Positions 1 through 5,040 of a stretch of 5,159 bases of DNA are shown piece after piece; positions within the stretch are counted from its first letter, which is position 1; each line of letters opens with the position of its first letter. The DNA is from a virus (taxonomy: Duplodnaviria > Heunggongvirae > Uroviricota > Caudoviricetes). The translations under genes and the position numbers were made by a program. A model generated the notes under the pieces. The model searched no databases. It saw only the letters and a program-made list of their open reading frames with translations, and had not been told where the DNA came from. The DNA lies in the IMG/VR virus record IMGVR_UViG_2671180637_000011; one strand, written 5' to 3'.

Positions 1-69
1 CATGTTGTTGGCGATCCGACGCATCTGCTCACGGTCAAAGTTAACCATCTGTGCGGCGATGTTTTTCAT
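1..69 (-). CDS. P: Replication protein P, N-terminal 23 codons only (gene continues beyond window start)
   Basis: Reverse complement of 1-69 translates MKNIAAQMVNFDREQMRRIANNM, which I recognise as the N-terminus of lambda P. Its ATG (69-67) overlaps the O stop codon (68-66) in an ATGA arrangement, as in lambda. Confidence 0.9.
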   Translation of the reverse strand, partial: MKNIAAQMVNFDREQMRRIANNM

Positions 70-1004
70 AGATCCACCCCGTAAATCCAGTCTGTGTTTG
101 TCAGGTCGAGTTTTGGTTTGCTGGCTGTCACGGCTGCCTGTTGCTTGTTACGGTTGATTTCGAGCTGGGTCCACTTGTCGCGGAGTTTGGCCGGACTCAG
201 CACGTTACCGGACCAGAAGTTGTCCTGGCAGGCCCAGCGGAAAAGCACACACATATCGCGGTGGTTACGTCCGTCACGTTCACGCATCAGGCGGATATCG
301 TTAGCCCACCCTGCAAAATTCGGTTTTCTGGCTGATGGCGCGATAGTCTTCACCATGTCAAACATCCACTCTGCGGCGGTCAGGTCTTCTGCTGTTCCCC
401 ACTTGCTGCCGCTCTGAATTGCAGCATCCGGTTTAACCACAGAAAGATCGTTTTCTGGCTGGTCAGAGGATTCGCCAGAATTCTCGGACGAATAATCTTT
501 TCTTTTTTCTTTTGTAATAGTGTCTTTTGTGTCCCCCTGTTTTGAGGGATAGCAATCCCCTAATTTGAGGGATGTTTTATCCCTCGTTTTAGGGGATTTT
601 CCCTCGTTTTGAGGGATGTCCCTCATTTTAGGGGAACCTCCCTCGTTTTGAGGGATGCACCATTCTGAGATGTTTTTATTTGGTCCAAACATGCCGCCTT
701 GCTGCTTGATAATATTCATTCTGACGAGTTCTAACTTGGCTTCATTGCACCGTTTGACAGGTAACTTTGTAATCTCGCTAAGTTGAGAATCGGTGATTCT
801 GTCCATTGGTTTATTCCACCCATAGGTTTTACGCAGAATGGCAAGCAGCACTTTAAACTGTCGCTTGGTCAGATCTGCGCCTGAATAAGCCTCAATCAGC
901 ATATTTGATAGTCTGGCGTAACCATCATCGAGATCTGCCACATTACGCTCCTGTTCGGCAAAGTTACCTCTGCCGAAGTTGAGTATTTTTGCTGTATTTG
1001 TCAT
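66..1004 (-). CDS. O: Replication initiator protein O (lambda O family, iteron-binding)
   Basis: 312-aa ORF from the track. The N-terminal ~110 aa (MTNTAKILNFGRGNFA...VRMNIIKQQGGMFGPNKNISEWCIPQNEG) read as lambda O from memory. The ori iterons lie inside the ORF and encode the repeated IPQNEG linker. It is immediately followed by P. Confidence 0.95.
   Translation of the reverse strand: MTNTAKILNFGRGNFAEQERNVADLDDGYARLSNMLIEAYSGADLTKRQFKVLLAILRKTYGWNKPMDRITDSQLSEITKLPVKRCNEAKLELVRMNIIKQQGGMFGPNKNISEWCIPQNEGGSPKMRDIPQNEGKSPKTRDKTSLKLGDCYPSKQGDTKDTITKEKRKDYSSENSGESSDQPENDLSVVKPDAAIQSGSKWGTAEDLTAAEWMFDMVKTIAPSARKPNFAGWANDIRLMRERDGRNHRDMCVLFRWACQDNFWSGNVLSPAKLRDKWTQLEINRNKQQAAVTASKPKLDLTNTDWIYGVDL
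481..656. repeat. ori-lambda-type replication origin: six direct iterons (532-656) plus adjacent A/T-rich unwinding tract (481-531), embedded in O
   Basis: Six copies of an 18-19 bp unit (plus-strand consensus tCCCTCgTTTTgAGGGAt, itself an inverted repeat) at 532-550, 555-573, 579-597, 599-617, 619-636 and 639-656. The flanking tract 481-531 (rc ACAAAAGACACTATTACAAAAGAAAAAAGAAAAGATTATTCG) matches the lambda ori A/T-rich region as I remember it. Confidence 0.9.
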
Positions 1005-1014: not shown

Positions 1015-1090
1015 GTGGATTGATCCAGTAATTCCCTCAGAATTGCATATCAATTTGCTTAGAGTCCCCGGCGGCCACCGGGGATTTTTT
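1015..1090 (+). ncRNA. oop: oop-like antisense RNA (~76 nt) overlapping the cII 3' end
   Basis: Plus-strand segment GATTGATCCAGTAATTCCCTCAGAATTGCATATCAATTTGCTTAGAGTCCCCGGCGGCCACCGGGGATTTTTT aligns by eye with lambda oop RNA (GUUGAUAGAUCCAGUAAUGACCUCAGAA...GCCGCCGGGCGUUUUUU, from memory). It has the same position (O/cII junction), the same antisense orientation to cII and the same terminal hairpin plus U-run. Confidence 0.7.
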
Positions 1091-1333
1091 CTTTGTGATT
1101 TCATCAAGCGCATACTTAAAAGCCCTGCTAATCGGACTGATGTCTGATGCCATTCCGAAAGCACACAAGACCGAAGCAATAAATCTCCAGTCCGTTCTGC
1201 TTATCTTCGATTCATGACAGCCAATCATCTTTGCCAGACCGCGCTGGGTAAGCGTTGACAGGTTGATAAGTAAATCTGTTTCTGCGCGATCAACATCACG
1301 CTGTGATAGTTTGCTGTAACTTGTTTGTTCCAT
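1037..1333 (-). CDS. cII: CII-family transcriptional activator (98 aa)
   Basis: ORF between cro and O on the same strand, as in lambda. It has a helix-turn-helix-like segment (LTQRGLAKMIGCHESKISR). Its 3' end is overlapped by the antisense oop-like RNA and its 5' end by a PRE-like TTGC-N6-TTGT motif. Size matches lambda CII (97 aa). Confidence 0.85.
   Translation of the reverse strand: MEQTSYSKLSQRDVDRAETDLLINLSTLTQRGLAKMIGCHESKISRTDWRFIASVLCAFGMASDISPISRAFKYALDEITKKKSPVAAGDSKQIDMQF
1065..1093 (+). terminator. Intrinsic terminator (t_o-like) ending the oop RNA
   Basis: Stem CCCCGG (1066-1071) / CCGGGG (1078-1083) with loop CGGCCA, followed by TTTTTT (1085-1090). The reverse strand has no U-run after the hairpin, so it works only for plus-strand transcripts. 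Confidence 0.75.
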
Positions 1334-1471: not shown

Positions 1472-1705
1472 TTATGCTGCTGATGCTCTACGCGATACGA
1501 ACACCAGATTTTCCTTTTTCACAGGTTTATAACCCGTGAAATTACGAGTGGCTTCTTCGATTGCATTCGCTTTATCTGGGGAAGCTCTTCGAAACCCATA
1601 TGCAATCTGATCAAGATAGCCAACTGAAGTATTCGCTAATGCGGCGAGTCGCTTCCATTCCTCACTAGAAGCCTCTTTTCGCCAGCGTAGTAGTTCATTA
1701 CTCAT
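1472..1705 (-). CDS. cro: Cro-like repressor (77 aa, Cro/CI-type HTH)
   Basis: Small ORF divergent from cI with a strong SD (GGAGG, rc of 1711-1715) 5 nt before the ATG. It is the first gene of the rightward operon (cro-nutR-cII-O-P). Its sequence is not lambda Cro; it looks like the Cro type seen in other lambdoid prophages, but this is unverified. Confidence 0.8.
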   Translation of the reverse strand: MSNELLRWRKEASSEEWKRLAALANTSVGYLDQIAYGFRRASPDKANAIEEATRNFTGYKPVKKENLVFVSRRASAA

Positions 1706-1818: not shown

Positions 1819-2523
1819 ATGGAAAACAAAGATATTCGCAAATCGAATCTGGCGTTTTTGCTAGATGAGCATAAAAAAATCGCGGGTAACACTAATGCAA
1901 GCTTTGCCGATAAGCTTGGAGTTAGCCCTTCTCAACTCACGCAAGTCTCCGGTGAAAAAAGCACTCGAAACATAGGGGATAAACTAGCAAGAAAATTCGA
2001 AGCCGCACTTGGGTTACCTAATGGGTGGCTTGATTTGGTACATGATGTAACACCAATTGCATCATGCTCAGATTCTTTAACTTTTGTCGGTCAGGTAAGA
2101 AAAGGGTTAGTGCGCGTGGTTGGTGAGGCAATTCTTGGTGTTGATGGTGCCATCGAGATGACCGAAGAGCGCGATGGGTGGCTCAATATTTATAGCGATG
2201 ATCCAGATGCCTTTGGTCTTCGTGTGAAAGGAGACAGCATGTGGCCCAGAATAAAATCAGGAGAATATGTACTCATTGAGCCTAACACCAAAGTATTCCC
2301 GGGGGATGAGGTGTTTGTCAGAACTGTTGAAGGACACAACATGATCAAAGTTCTTGGCTATGACAGAGATGGAGAATACCAATTTACAAGCATCAACCAG
2401 GACCACAGGCCAATAACGTTGCCTTATCATCAAGTAGCAAAGGTGGAGTATGTGGCTGGTATTCTGAAGCAATCTCGCCATCTGGATGACATCGAGGCAA
2501 GGGAGTGGCTGAAAAGTTCGTGA
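1819..2523 (+). CDS. cI: CI-type phage repressor (234 aa): N-terminal HTH, C-terminal LexA/S24-like self-cleaving domain
   Basis: The N-terminal region has an HTH-like segment (ASFADKLGVSPSQLTQVSG). The C-terminal domain carries the S24 peptidase signature GDSM with a downstream lysine (MIKVL). It is divergent from cro across the operator region and preceded by SD AGGGAGA. Confidence 0.9.
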   Translation: MENKDIRKSNLAFLLDEHKKIAGNTNASFADKLGVSPSQLTQVSGEKSTRNIGDKLARKFEAALGLPNGWLDLVHDVTPIASCSDSLTFVGQVRKGLVRVVGEAILGVDGAIEMTEERDGWLNIYSDDPDAFGLRVKGDSMWPRIKSGEYVLIEPNTKVFPGDEVFVRTVEGHNMIKVLGYDRDGEYQFTSINQDHRPITLPYHQVAKVEYVAGILKQSRHLDDIEAREWLKSS

Positions 2524-2749
2524 CTTCATCGTCACATAGCTGGTAACCAGTGGCCTGAAGAGACGTTTGGGTGATGTGATAGAGATCATTATTCAATTCG
2601 ATTGAGAAAAATCATCATAAGGTTTATATCCATTTATTAGATTTTATGTGTATAAATAGTTAAAAATGCACGATGTAGAGATATTTGTGCTTAACATCAA
2701 TTAATCATTGCTAAATCGTGCTTATTGTTCAGAAATCGCCCAAGTCATA

Positions 2750-2778
2750 TTGAAAATCTGTTGGCGAACACCTATATA
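2750..2778 (+). promoter_or_regulatory. Near-consensus sigma70 promoter inside the cI-OL accessory locus
   Basis: -35 TTGAAA (2750-2755), exactly 17-bp spacer, -10 TATATA (2773-2778). This is the strongest-looking promoter in the window. Predicted start ~2785, only ~7 nt before the GTG of the 36-codon ORF. Confidence 0.4.
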
Positions 2779-2791
2779 AGGAGTATAGTTA

Positions 2792-2902
2792 GTGACCCAA
2801 AACGTATTGCCAATCAACAAGAGCTTGCATGACCGAGCTGTTGATGAATTTAATCGTCTGCATGGAACAATGATTGGCGAGATTAGTGCAATGCTGAAGT
2901 AA
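2792..2902 (+). CDS. Hypothetical micro-protein, 36 aa (MTQNVLPINKSLHDRAVDEFNRLHGTMIGEISAMLK), GTG start
   Basis: Hand translation; below the ORF-track size cutoff. AAGGAG (2778-2783) lies 8 nt upstream of GTG 2792. It is the only ORF with a credible SD between cI and OL. The peptide is not hydrophobic. Coding status is uncertain: the SD overlaps the -10 of the promoter above, so the SD would only be used on cI read-through transcripts. Confidence 0.35.
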   Translation: MTQNVLPINKSLHDRAVDEFNRLHGTMIGEISAMLK

Positions 2903-3016
2903 GCTTTTGGCTGAAATGCGCGGATGTGTAGAGCGCGTTCAAAATCTACGCCGCGACTTTGAAGCTCACATCAATCATTCACAAAAAGCGGCTTGATACT
3001 TAAGTTAGATGACAGA

Positions 3017-3045
3017 ACCCGGCCTCAGCGCCGGGTTTTCTTTGC
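3017..3045 (+). terminator. Intrinsic terminator closing the cI / rex-position transcription unit, just upstream of OL
   Basis: Stem CCCGGC (3018-3023) / GCCGGG (3030-3035) with a 6-nt loop, followed by TTTTCTTT. There is no terminator between the cI stop (2523) and this element, so PRM/PRE transcripts should read through 2524-3016. Confidence 0.8.
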
Positions 3046-3224
3046 CTCACGATCCCCACACCTAATAACACCTTAACCAATTGTATTTATTGAAAAATTG
3101 ATAGATACAACTTTCTAAACCACGAAATTCTGATCCCCCTCAAGTCTCTTCATTCCTTCTGATAAATTCCCGCAATCAAATAAAAAACCATAATAATCAA
3201 CAGGATATTTGAAAACCCAAACAA

Positions 3225-3268
3225 TTTATCATTTTGCTATTGCCATCAGTTTATCATTTCGATAAAGT
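3225..3268 (+). promoter_or_regulatory. OL operators and PL promoter
   Basis: Two 17-bp operator-like sites with the same half-site as OR: TTTATCATTTTGCTATT (3225-3241) and the perfect palindrome TTTATC-ATTTC-GATAAA (3250-3266). PL: -35 TTGCCA (3240-3245), 17-bp spacer, -10 TAAAGT (3263-3268), the same -10 hexamer as PR. It reads into nutL and N. Confidence 0.6.
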
Positions 3269-3314: not shown

Positions 3315-3360
3315 GCTCTTTAAACAACGTCGAACACTCGACTACGTGGCTGAAAAGCCA
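3315..3360 (+). promoter_or_regulatory. nutL (boxA + boxB)
   Basis: boxA GCTCTTTAA (3315-3323); boxB hairpin TGGC-TGAAAA-GCCA (3347-3360). It lies in the PL leader ~100 nt upstream of N. The CTACGTNGCTGAAAAGCNAG core is shared with nutR. Confidence 0.6.
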
Positions 3361-3458: not shown

Positions 3459-3731
3459 ATGTCCAGAAAAACAGAATTTAAAGGCACCGCAGCTTCTCGA
3501 CGTAGAGCTCGTCGCGCAAACCTGCAAAGTCAGGAGGCGATTAGCTCCGACAAGCTACACAGGCCAACCCCTTCACGAGTGGTCTTGCAATGCAAGCGCA
3601 AACCAGCAATGAGAGCAGAAGTTATAACTCTGACAACGTTGACCAGAAAATATGAAGGTTCAACTTGTCTTCCGAACGTAGCTCTTTACGCGGCAGGCTA
3701 CCGGAAATCAAAACAACTGACAGCGAGGTAA
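3459..3731 (+). CDS. N: N-type transcription antitermination protein (90 aa)
   Basis: Arginine-rich motif near the N-terminus (GTAASRRRARRANLQ), typical of boxB-binding N proteins. SD GGGAGG (3448-3453) 5 nt before ATG 3459. First gene after PL and nutL. The track ORF 3387-3731 is the same frame extended upstream to an ATG without an SD; I prefer the 3459 start. Confidence 0.8.
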   Translation: MSRKTEFKGTAASRRRARRANLQSQEAISSDKLHRPTPSRVVLQCKRKPAMRAEVITLTTLTRKYEGSTCLPNVALYAAGYRKSKQLTAR

Positions 3732-3789
3732 CCTGCACTGTTCGCCAGAAAATGAAATTAGGCAGCAAACCACTTATTTGAGGTGATAT

Positions 3790-4239
3790 ATGGAAGAACA
3801 GGCAAATAAGATTCTCATAGAACTATTGCAAAAAGCCAGTAATGGAATAGACGCGGCTGTCTCATTTAGCCAGGCACAGATTCCTGATGTTGTTCATCAG
3901 TTACTGCTATGGAATATGGTTGACAGTCTGATTAAAACATTAATAGCCATTTTAACAATCCCGCTGGTTTTCTGGTTTATGAAGAAACAGTGCCAAAAAG
4001 TTGAAATTGGTAAGTTCGATGATGAAGGATGGTCATGGGATAAGGGGAAGACTAAATACAAACCGACTATGATTTGGGAAAGTAACGGTGAGATTAGTTT
4101 TCTAATCTTACCATTAGCTGCAGTTTTTGTTCTGTGGGTAAGTTTTATTATTGCTGTAGTAACCAATATGACTTGGTTAAAAATTTGGCTGGCCCCAAAG
4201 CTTTACCTTATCGAATATGCAGCATCATTGGTTAAGTAA
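3790..4239 (+). CDS. Hypothetical small inner-membrane protein (149 aa, two predicted TM helices); candidate superinfection-exclusion or abortive-infection function
   Basis: SD GAGGTGA (3780-3786). Hydrophobic segments LIKTLIAILTIPLVFWFM (~aa 47-64) and ISFLILPLAAVFVLWVSFIIAVV (~aa 102-124) are separated by a charged loop (KKQCQKVEIGKFDDEGWSWDKGKTKYK). Immediately downstream of N and followed by its own terminator. No homolog recognised from memory. Confidence 0.75.
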   Translation: MEEQANKILIELLQKASNGIDAAVSFSQAQIPDVVHQLLLWNMVDSLIKTLIAILTIPLVFWFMKKQCQKVEIGKFDDEGWSWDKGKTKYKPTMIWESNGEISFLILPLAAVFVLWVSFIIAVVTNMTWLKIWLAPKLYLIEYAASLVK

Positions 4240-4243
4240 TTTT

Positions 4244-4269
4244 AGGCCGCATAGTCGGCCTTTATTTTT
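4244..4269 (+). terminator. Intrinsic terminator after the membrane-protein gene
   Basis: Stem AGGCCG (4244-4249) / CGGCCT (4256-4261) with loop CATAGT, followed by TTATTTTT. Confidence 0.7.
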
Positions 4270-4386
4270 GGCATAAACAACAGAATAAACACTGCACTGT
4301 GCATTCATTCCAACGAGTGAATACACGGAGAAATGTCGCTCATAATTAAACAGGAGCCGACTTGTTCTGATTATTGGAAATCTTCT

Positions 4387-4415
4387 TTGCCCTCCGATGT
4401 GAGGGCAATTTTTTA
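4387..4415 (+). terminator. Second intrinsic terminator, immediately upstream of the 122-aa gene
   Basis: Stem TTGCCCTC (4387-4394) / GAGGGCAA (4401-4408) with loop CGATGT, followed by TTTTTT (4409-4414). Confidence 0.7.
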
Positions 4416-4434
4416 TCTATGAGGATATGAATAG

Positions 4435-4803
4435 ATGTCAAACATCAAAAAATACATCATTGATTACGACTGGAAAGCATCAATAGAAATTGAAATCGAC
4501 CATGACGTAATGACAGAGGAAAAACTTCACCAGATTAATAATTTCTGGTCAGACTCTGAATACCGACTCAATAAACACGGCTCTGTATTAAATGCTGTAT
4601 TAATCATGCTGGCGCAACATGCTCTGCTTATAGCAATTTCAAGCGACTTAAATGCATATGGTGTTGTGTGTGAGTTCGACTGGAATGATGGAAATGGTCA
4701 GGAAGGATGGCCTCCAATGGATGGTAGCGAAGGAATAAGAATTACCGATATCGATACATCAGGAATATTTGATTCAGATGATATGACTATCAAAGCCGCC
4801 TGA
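4435..4803 (+). CDS. Hypothetical acidic protein (122 aa, about 22 Asp/Glu vs 8 Lys/Arg; Asp-rich C-terminus)
   Basis: ORF from the track with SD GAGGA (4421-4425) 9 nt before the ATG. Strongly acidic composition, especially DWNDGNGQEGWPPMDGSEGIRITDIDTSGIFDSDDM. Bracketed by terminator-like hairpins. No homolog recognised from memory. Confidence 0.7.
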   Translation: MSNIKKYIIDYDWKASIEIEIDHDVMTEEKLHQINNFWSDSEYRLNKHGSVLNAVLIMLAQHALLIAISSDLNAYGVVCEFDWNDGNGQEGWPPMDGSEGIRITDIDTSGIFDSDDMTIKAA

Positions 4804-4826
4804 GCGCGGCGTTACCGCATACCAAT

Positions 4827-4850
4827 AACGCTTCACTCGAGGCGTTTTTC
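4827..4850 (+). terminator. Terminator-like hairpin after the acidic-protein gene
   Basis: Stem AACGCTTC (4827-4834) / GAGGCGTT (4839-4846) with one G-U pair and loop ACTC, followed by TTTCG. Weaker than the other terminators. Confidence 0.45.
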
Positions 4851-4875
4851 GTTATGTATAAATAAGGAGCACACC

Positions 4876-5040
4876 ATGCAATATGCCATTGCAGGGTGGC
4901 CTGTTGCTGGCTGCCCTTCCGAATCTTTACTTGAACGAATCACCCGTAAATTACGTGACGGATGGAAACGCCTTATCGACATACTTAATCAGCCAGGAGT
5001 CCCAAAAAATGGATCAAACACTTATGGCTATCCAGACTAA
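4876..5040 (+). CDS. Small conserved prophage protein, 54 aa (MQYAIAGWPVAGCPSESLLERITRKLRDGWKRLIDILNQPGVPKNGSNTYGYPD); reminiscent of the YdfA-like family of the Qin prophage dicB operon (from memory, unverified)
   Basis: Hand translation; not in the ORF track. Strong SD AAGGAG (4864-4869) 6 nt before ATG 4876; stop TAA 5038-5040. Different frame from the track ORF 4883-5152. Confidence 0.6.
   Translation: MQYAIAGWPVAGCPSESLLERITRKLRDGWKRLIDILNQPGVPKNGSNTYGYPD

Follow-up and report, generated by a model that had tools for sequence, protein, structure and literature searches.

Organisation of the locus

The DNA analysed here (5,159 nucleotides, hereafter the window) is a lambdoid immunity region, described in the direction in which cI is read. 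Its principal features are as follows:

66-1004, minus strand: O replication gene, including the ori iterons
1037-1333, minus strand: cII
1472-1705, minus strand: cro-like gene
about 1717-1800: OR operators
1819-2523, plus strand: cI-type repressor gene (Pfam Peptidase_S24, phrog_4)
2578-3015, plus strand: remnant of a cargo ('moron') cassette filling the slot between cI and OL; positions 2578-2790 are its AT-rich leader
3014-3044, plus strand: intrinsic terminator, a 10-bp GC-rich hairpin (3014-3039) with a U-tract to about 3044
3225-3268, plus strand: OL operators (pattern TTTATC-N5-GATAAA) and putative pL, forming the right edge of the cargo slot
3' of OL/pL: nutL-like boxA/boxB
3459-3731: N
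3' of N: two small genes, then the cIII thermoregulator

The cI homologue is described as a LexA-family regulator in RefSeq annotation, and is the likely source of transcripts reading into the cassette. The OL sites carry annotation in the ST2-8624 record, and the putative pL (TTGCCA-17-TAAAGT) scores 12.2 bits in the weighted hexamer scan described below. An Rfam search of the window (E <= 1) gave the lambda cIII thermoregulator as its sole real match; the snoRNA 'matches' that it also returned correspond to the ori iterons and were discarded.

The boundaries of the cargo slot follow from comparison with the Stx phages AU5Stx1 and ST2-8624 (H-19B), whose backbones match the window to about 2575 and again from 3016 but carry other cargo in between; the cassette thus splits a backbone that is continuous in related phages, as expected for a moron insertion. 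GC content is 30-35% across 2500-2800, compared with 44-47% in cI. The terminator that lies downstream, again as in morons, was correctly placed near 3045 by the original prediction; its hairpin has a calculated folding energy of -16.5 kcal/mol (z = -2.83). Since it is also present in cargo-less relatives it belongs to the backbone, in the manner of lambda T_IMM. Each homologous cassette has its own GC hairpin and T-run directly after its second gene, and across these cassettes five of the nine stem pairs are changed on both sides. The 3014-3044 terminator is predicted to end both cI read-through and cassette transcripts. No terminator-like site was found between cI and the cassette (2524-2790).

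A deletion accounts for the short reading frame

A search of complete E. coli genomes with positions 2524-3200 returned matches that were 100% identical yet split in two, spanning 979 bp as against 677 bp in the query. Comparison with one of these, the prophage of E. coli O103 RM8385 (L001), by blastn and by direct inspection of the junction, identified 301 bp (L001 3376-3676) that are absent from the window. The interval between cI and the terminator accordingly contains:

2792-2902, plus strand: truncated gene 1, 36 codons and TAA, identical to residues 1-36 of WP_000193240.1
2898-2899: junction of the 301-bp deletion, with 1-nt microhomology (blastn and direct comparison with L001)
2899-2996, plus strand: 3' remnant of gene 2, the last 32 of 42 codons and the stop codon (phrog_12503)

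The intact cassette is 739 bp in length. In L001 the GTG equivalent to that at 2792 starts a 120-codon gene (gene 1, WP_000193240.1), which is followed by a 42-codon gene (gene 2, WP_000158654.1) and then by the same terminator. The deletion removed gene 1 codons 37-120, the spacer and, from gene 2, the Shine-Dalgarno sequence (SD) together with the initial 10 codons; being out of frame, it brought a TAA directly behind the 36 remaining codons of gene 1. The intact gene 1 product matches phrog_13858 over residues 2-120 (E = 5e-73), whereas the window ORF aligns over residues 1-36 only. The 36-codon ORF, which the original prediction had treated as a peptide gene, is thus the 5' stump of the 120-codon gene, i.e. 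a truncated pseudogene of phrog_13858. Although the 32 codons left of gene 2 are identical to the intact form, its ATG and GAGGGG SD are deleted, such that the window holds no complete ORF for phrog_12503 or WP_000158654.1, and a 29-codon ORF at 2907-2996 is simply the tail of this gene.

The deletion allele is rare. A 561-nt query for the intact form was unbroken in 90 E. coli records, and a query for the junction was split in two by the same 90; the intact form is therefore present in all of the matching E. coli records (89 of 5,426 genomes). The exact junction was found in one other IMG/VR contig only, L002, which shares 99.8% identity with the window; a search of 185,579 species-representative genomes did not recover it. 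The presence of the junction in two near-identical records argues against an assembly error, and conservation of the 120-codon form at the protein level across genera makes it unlikely that the longer form arose by insertion. Both the 36-codon ORF and the promoter-to-terminator distance of approximately 260 nt are consequences of this deletion. Positions 2750-3045 are thus almost certainly the promoter, two gene stumps and terminator of a decayed two-gene prophage cassette, and the feature in the window is itself ordinary gene decay. More generally, a promoter-to-terminator interval with a tiny ORF can mimic an sRNA gene where relatives reveal a recently deleted protein-coding cassette.

The intact gene pair

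Homologues of the cassette (39-99% identity) always comprise a gene of 120 codons, a short spacer that carries an SD (GAGGGG, GAGGAA or AGGAG, 6-8 nt before the ATG), a gene of 42-45 codons, and the GC hairpin with its T-run. Substitutions between homologues fall mainly at third codon positions, with counts at positions 1/2/3 of 13/7/45, 31/15/69 and 27/14/65 for gene 1 and 9/6/20 for gene 2, identifying both as real protein genes; the pair thus evolves under protein-level constraint. Searches of Pfam, NCBIfam and PADLOC gave no match for either protein, no toxin-antitoxin or defence model was matched by the pair, and a literature search found no paper naming either protein accession or PHROG. 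A structural model of the gene 1 product is an all-helical bundle (pLDDT 82) with generic fold matches only.

The pair occurs in E. coli, Citrobacter, Enterobacter, Serratia, Hafnia, Pantoea, Proteus phage Pm34 and Xenorhabdus, and is linked to cI-type repressors in at least nine genera, eight of them beyond E. coli. In most contigs with readable flanks it lies 200-300 bp 3' of a cI-type S24 repressor gene; these repressors vary in immunity type, while the pair moves as one unit, and one Pantoea copy (L026) has the cassette without a repressor gene upstream. In Shiga-toxin-producing E. coli serogroups, e.g. O26, O103 and O111, the pair occupies the slot held by Rex in lambda. Among isolated-phage records, searches at the DNA level matched the cassette flanks only, and searches at the protein level found the pair in Proteus phage Pm34 only.

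Promoter candidates at the start of gene 1

Two overlapping candidate promoters lie at the translation start of gene 1:

2750-2778, plus strand: P1, TTGAAA-17-TATATA (-35 at 2750-2755, -10 at 2773-2778), predicted start about 2785
2761-2789, plus strand: P2, TTGGCG-17-TATAGT, with its -10 between the SD and the GTG, predicted start about 2795-2797
2778-2783, plus strand: gene 1 SD, AAGGAG, 8 nt before the GTG

The P1 hexamers, the AAGGAG, the GTG at 2792 and the 36-codon ORF are all positioned as originally described. Candidates were ranked by a weighted hexamer scan of both strands, using approximate hexamer frequencies. P1, originally regarded as the best sigma-70 match in the window, scores 6.8 bits and ranks about 30th over both strands; its TATATA has no T at -7, and it was missed by the promoter scan of the analysis tool. 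The top site of the window on both strands is instead P2 (12.5 bits), which overlaps P1, lies 11 bp downstream of it and is the only promoter-like site that the tool lists in the intact cassette. Shuffling reproduces a score of 12.5 bits in 35% of cases for the whole window and in 2.7% for the local AT-rich stretch of 223 nt, and the window contains no excess of promoter-like sites (5, against 9.8 +/- 3.4 expected); on one sequence alone the P2 score is not beyond chance. Furthermore, both -10 candidates lie inside the translation start region, which is expected to be conserved and AU-rich in any case, and A2778 is common to the P1 -10 and the AAGGAG.

The evidence for a real promoter at this position lies in what diverged homologues have conserved. 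Six upstream regions were compared that share no more than 44-48% identity with E. coli in their far-upstream parts; P2 ranks first at the same alignment column in five of them and second by 0.05 bits in the sixth. In eight of nine lineages the best-scoring site leaves exactly 2 nt between its -10 and the start codon. The P2 hexamers themselves drift (TTGGCG, TTGGAG, TTGATC and TTGTCA at -35; TATAGT, TATGAT and TATAAT at -10) while the spacer is kept at 16-17, and in Xenorhabdus the site at this position, TTGTCA-16-TATAAT, is near consensus. The TTG of the P1 -35 is invariant in all nine aligned lineages; the P1 -10 is degraded to CATATA or CATGTA in Pantoea, and in Proteus phage Pm34 a usable -10 is present only for the upstream promoter (TTGAAA-17-TATAAC). 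Two further homologues (49% and 76% identity) have the same promoter layout, and the most distant (39% identity) has an ordinary promoter, upstream of the SD. The AAGGAG does not vary among the E. coli, Hafnia-like, Pantoea, Serratia and Enterobacter lineages, but is replaced by ATGGAG in Xenorhabdus and differs also in Pm34. Around the SD, a block of 30 nt is almost unchanged even where the homologues share only 49% identity, which could reflect recent recombination instead of promoter selection.

These comparisons lead us to predict that a sigma-70 promoter whose transcript excludes the gene 1 SD is conserved in the intact relatives. The exclusion, already part of the original prediction for P1, follows from the geometry of both candidates in nine lineages, the starts themselves being predicted only. 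P1 and P2 may be tandem promoters; we also considered that the second -10-like hexamer might pause sigma-70 complexes that have started at P1, as occurs at lambdoid late promoters. A candidate antisense promoter (TTGGCA-17-AACTAT, minus strand) was rejected because its -35 is not conserved. Direct repressor control of the embedded promoter was likewise discarded, since no cI operator of the form TTTATC-N5-GATAAA occurs within the cassette or in the stretch that separates it from cI.

Proposed expression of the intact cassette

In the mechanism that we propose for the intact cassette, cI read-through mRNA from the maintenance and establishment promoters would carry the gene 1 SD and so permit translation of both genes. 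That this SD can act on read-through mRNA, as the original prediction had it, follows from the lack of a terminator separating it from cI. RNA from the embedded promoter would be without the gene 1 SD and, if started at P2, also without the GTG, but would carry gene 2 with its own SD, so that only gene 2 would be translated; translation of gene 1 would then be confined to mRNA starting upstream of the embedded promoter. The translation signals proper to gene 2 are present in the intact homologues and deleted in the window. In-frame stops located 2 codons upstream of the gene 1 GTG close the frame on that side. A shorter gene 1 product made from the embedded promoter was rejected, since the TTG and ATG codons further into the gene vary between homologues (Met27, for instance, is Ile in four distant homologues).

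The explanation as a whole, a deletion remnant with an embedded promoter serving the distal gene only, is the one we favour, with reasonable though far from complete confidence. That the promoter is active in this 'distal gene only' capacity is, judged from the alignments, close to an even matter and perhaps slightly short of it. Its position is odd for gene 2 alone, because it lies about 390 nt before that gene and leaders that are long and untranslated are prone to termination by Rho. The promoter is intact in the window and probably continues to direct synthesis of a transcript of about 250 nt, with its 3' end at 3040-3044. As this transcript would contain no gene that can be translated, the best interpretation is a by-product of decay and not a selected sRNA.

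The earlier observation is thereby partly confirmed, and its interpretation partly supported. An SD-excluding promoter and two modes of expression come close to the reading suggested by the intact relatives, with the difference that the modes would be distinguished by which gene is translated; the sRNA and the peptide gene do not survive the comparison.

Alternative explanations

Positions 2785-3045 might instead encode an authentic regulatory sRNA, with a promoter and a terminator dedicated to it. In the window, 250-260 nt without a translatable ORF are indeed flanked by a promoter and a strong terminator, and the deletion allele exists in two near-identical records, but both the length and the non-coding state of the interval derive from the 301-bp deletion, which is carried by 0 of the 89 E. 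coli genomes with the cassette. Homologous sequence is constrained at the codon level, third-position substitutions dominating both genes, whereas an sRNA gene should be free of protein-coding constraint. Neither the predicted RNA (2785-3048; z = -0.89) nor the leader from cI to the SD (z = -0.12) folds unusually well compared with shuffled sequences, there is no Rfam match (E <= 1) within 2524-3100, and only the terminator hairpin is supported as stable structure; a weak hairpin (CUAUAU/GUAUAG) that would place the SD in its loop was dismissed, as by eye it is kept only partly in the alignment of homologues. Known sRNAs of such prophages, AgvB/AsxR and Pas, lie in another part of the phage map, the late region. 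Given its deletion origin, codon constraint, poor folding and want of an Rfam family, we reject a dedicated sRNA gene, including the ~260-nt species first proposed, as highly improbable. A different possibility is that gene 1 is translated in a leaderless-like manner from P1 mRNA, which would have only about 7 nt before the start codon and would lack the SD. The geometry of P1, with a start near 2785 and 7 nt before the GTG, the invariant -35 TTG, and the Pm34 promoter, which predicts a leader of about 8 nt, all speak for this, as does the classically leaderless nature of cI genes in lambdoid phages (lambda). Efficient leaderless initiation in E. coli, however, needs a 5'-terminal AUG, whereas the start here is GUG and is not 5'-terminal, the predicted transcription starts falling 7 nt before its first base for P1 and 3-5 nt after it for P2. 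An invariant, ideally spaced AAGGAG would moreover be purposeless, the P1 -10 lacks the T at -7 and is degenerate in Pantoea, and the product in the window would be a 36-residue stump anyway; we regard this explanation as quite improbable, if a little less so than an sRNA gene.

The more serious competitor holds that the hexamers are not a working promoter at all, but AU-rich sequence at a strong ribosome-binding site within a horizontally acquired AT-rich leader, and that the cassette is expressed by read-through only, like lambda rexA. It is favoured by a P2 score that is not beyond chance for a 5-kb window, by the occurrence of fewer promoter-like sites than in shuffles, by the overlap of the -10 candidates with the SD and with the SD-to-start spacer, both constrained by translation, by the uninterrupted path from cI into the cassette, and by the ordinary upstream promoter of the most distant homologue. 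Against it, both TTG motifs at -35 distance lie outside the start region and are conserved, unlike neighbouring bases; the spacer length is fixed at 16-17 despite sequence change; Xenorhabdus has its near-consensus site at the same place; and the L026 cassette of Pantoea stands without an upstream repressor gene from which it could be read. We therefore consider read-through alone rather unlikely, and retain the deletion remnant with an embedded promoter as the preferred explanation.

Comparison with known systems

In lambda, PRM directs cI-rexA-rexB transcription to T_IMM, and PLIT, inside rexA, directs expression of rexB only (bioRxiv 10.1101/2021.04.19.439022). Like rexA-rexB, the cassette lies directly 3' of cI, ends at the immunity terminator before OL/pL, and comprises two genes that would be read with cI plus a second, predicted internal promoter for the distal gene. 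Unlike them, it is related to RexA and RexB neither in sequence nor by family, its proteins are much smaller (120 and 42 aa), and both of its genes are destroyed in the window; the putative promoter, moreover, sits on the gene 1 ribosome-binding site, unlike PLIT, which is near the 3' end of its first gene. A further parallel in layout is hicAB, for which, as summarised in PMC7167474 (citing Turnbull & Gerdes 2017), the transcript of one promoter is cut off at the hicA ribosome-binding site and yields HicB only, whereas an upstream promoter gives the full message. The predicted geometry of the cassette is the same, with a downstream promoter that cuts off the ribosome-binding site of the proximal gene, but neither protein is homologous to HicA or HicB and the upstream promoters would be the phage's own cI promoters.

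By analogy, a sigma-70 promoter deliberately positioned on the gene 1 ribosome-binding site might make the intact cassette a hicAB-like switch, with both proteins made in the lysogen and the 42-aa protein alone made from a repressor-independent promoter, i.e. a new toxin/antidote-like or exclusion module; we think this unlikely, though worth stating. Were it correct, a repressor-linked pair would occupy the rex slot of many enterobacterial prophages, and the window would be a naturally disarmed copy. If the promoter is active, it would provide a third case, after lambda PLIT and hicAB, in which the ratio of partner proteins is set by the transcription start, and might indicate an exclusion or toxin/antidote-type role for the pair. 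For the window the outcome is mainly a correction, and the wider point is a modest one, concerning a small uncharacterised pair behind cI-type repressors; a promoter on the ribosome-binding site in the intact family would be a modestly interesting new instance of a known layout.

The prophage-encoded sRNAs known from pathogenic E. coli, namely the anti-sRNAs AgvB/AsxR and the sRNAs PasA-D (51-60 nt or similar), lie 3' of PR' and Q in the late region. They resemble the present interval in belonging to lambdoid prophages of comparable strains and in being bounded by a promoter and a terminator; they differ in that positions 2750-3045 have no sequence or Rfam match to them, and in that this locus is protein-coding when intact. 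Lambdoid morons are described as extra DNA between backbone genes that adjoin each other in related phages (Juhala et al. 2000, as cited in PMC4104026). The cassette resembles them in its AT-rich composition and intrinsic terminator behind, and would do so in its putative sigma-70-like promoter, although its promoter would overlap the start of the first gene instead of preceding it, its terminator is shared with the backbone, and the copy in the window is a deletion remnant.

Small RNA candidates and RNA elements

The window's genuine small RNA is probably a putative OOP-like antisense RNA, which overlaps cII, encoded on the opposite strand, at the 3′ end of that gene:

979-1092, + strand: putative OOP-like antisense RNA (predicted promoter, hairpins and terminator)

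The unit starts with a promoter at 979-1007 (TTGAGT-17-CATAAT, with TG in front), downstream of which an RNA of ~78 nt containing two hairpins is predicted, its 3′ end being formed by a terminator at 1061-1088 that is followed by a T-run (-31.2 kcal/mol, z = -3.97). Rfam returned no family match for this RNA at 979-1092. Elsewhere in the window, weak Rfam matches to the snoRNAs snR191 and TtnuHACA21 at 537-656 were rejected as artefacts: they stem from the TCCCTC...GAGGGA repeats inside the O gene, which are the iterons of the replication origin. At 4863-4921, where cIII begins, the lambda cIII thermoregulator RNA element (RF01804) is matched over its full length with 88.5 bits.

In the intact cassette of the E. 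coli O103 RM8385 prophage (L001), a weak hairpin followed by T4 is present within gene 1 at L001 3400-3420, ~130 nt 3′ of the embedded promoter and in the stretch that is deleted in the window. This hairpin is probably coincidental, since its position is that of the conserved DLRKKDP codons and homologues retain it poorly.

Cargo slot and flanking regulatory signals

Comparison of the window with the Stx phages AU5Stx1 and ST2-8624/H-19B (L023 and L024) identifies the interval between cI and OL (2578-3015) as a variable cargo slot. Its flanks are common to all three, at 85-98% identity (to the Stx phages, ~97% on the cI side and 85-86% on the OL side), and the slot itself is occupied in these phages by a 47-aa ORF or by ~1.5 kb of different DNA. 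Repressor operators of the form TTTATC-N5-GATAAA are found at OR (1717-1800) and OL (3225-3266), with none inside the cassette. The positions of pL and of the nutL-like signals are:

3240-3268: pL, TTGCCA-17-TAAAGT, overlapping OL1 and OL2
3315-3327: nutL-like boxA, GCTCTTTAAACAA, upstream of N
3329-3342: nutL-like boxB-type hairpin, GTCGAACACTCGAC, upstream of N

Beyond the Enterobacterales, the gene pair has homologues of 39-40% identity in a Saprospiraceae MAG whose contig is binned as Bacteroidota (L036) and in a metagenome contig of unassigned organism (L044); these occurrences could reflect either wrong binning or a wider family.

Downstream of N, the window (3732-4830) encodes a membrane protein of 149 aa (phrog_3054) together with a DUF2528 protein, whereas the corresponding region of the O103 prophage (L001 4509-6300) carries sieB and a TolA-like pseudogene, constituting another mosaic break.
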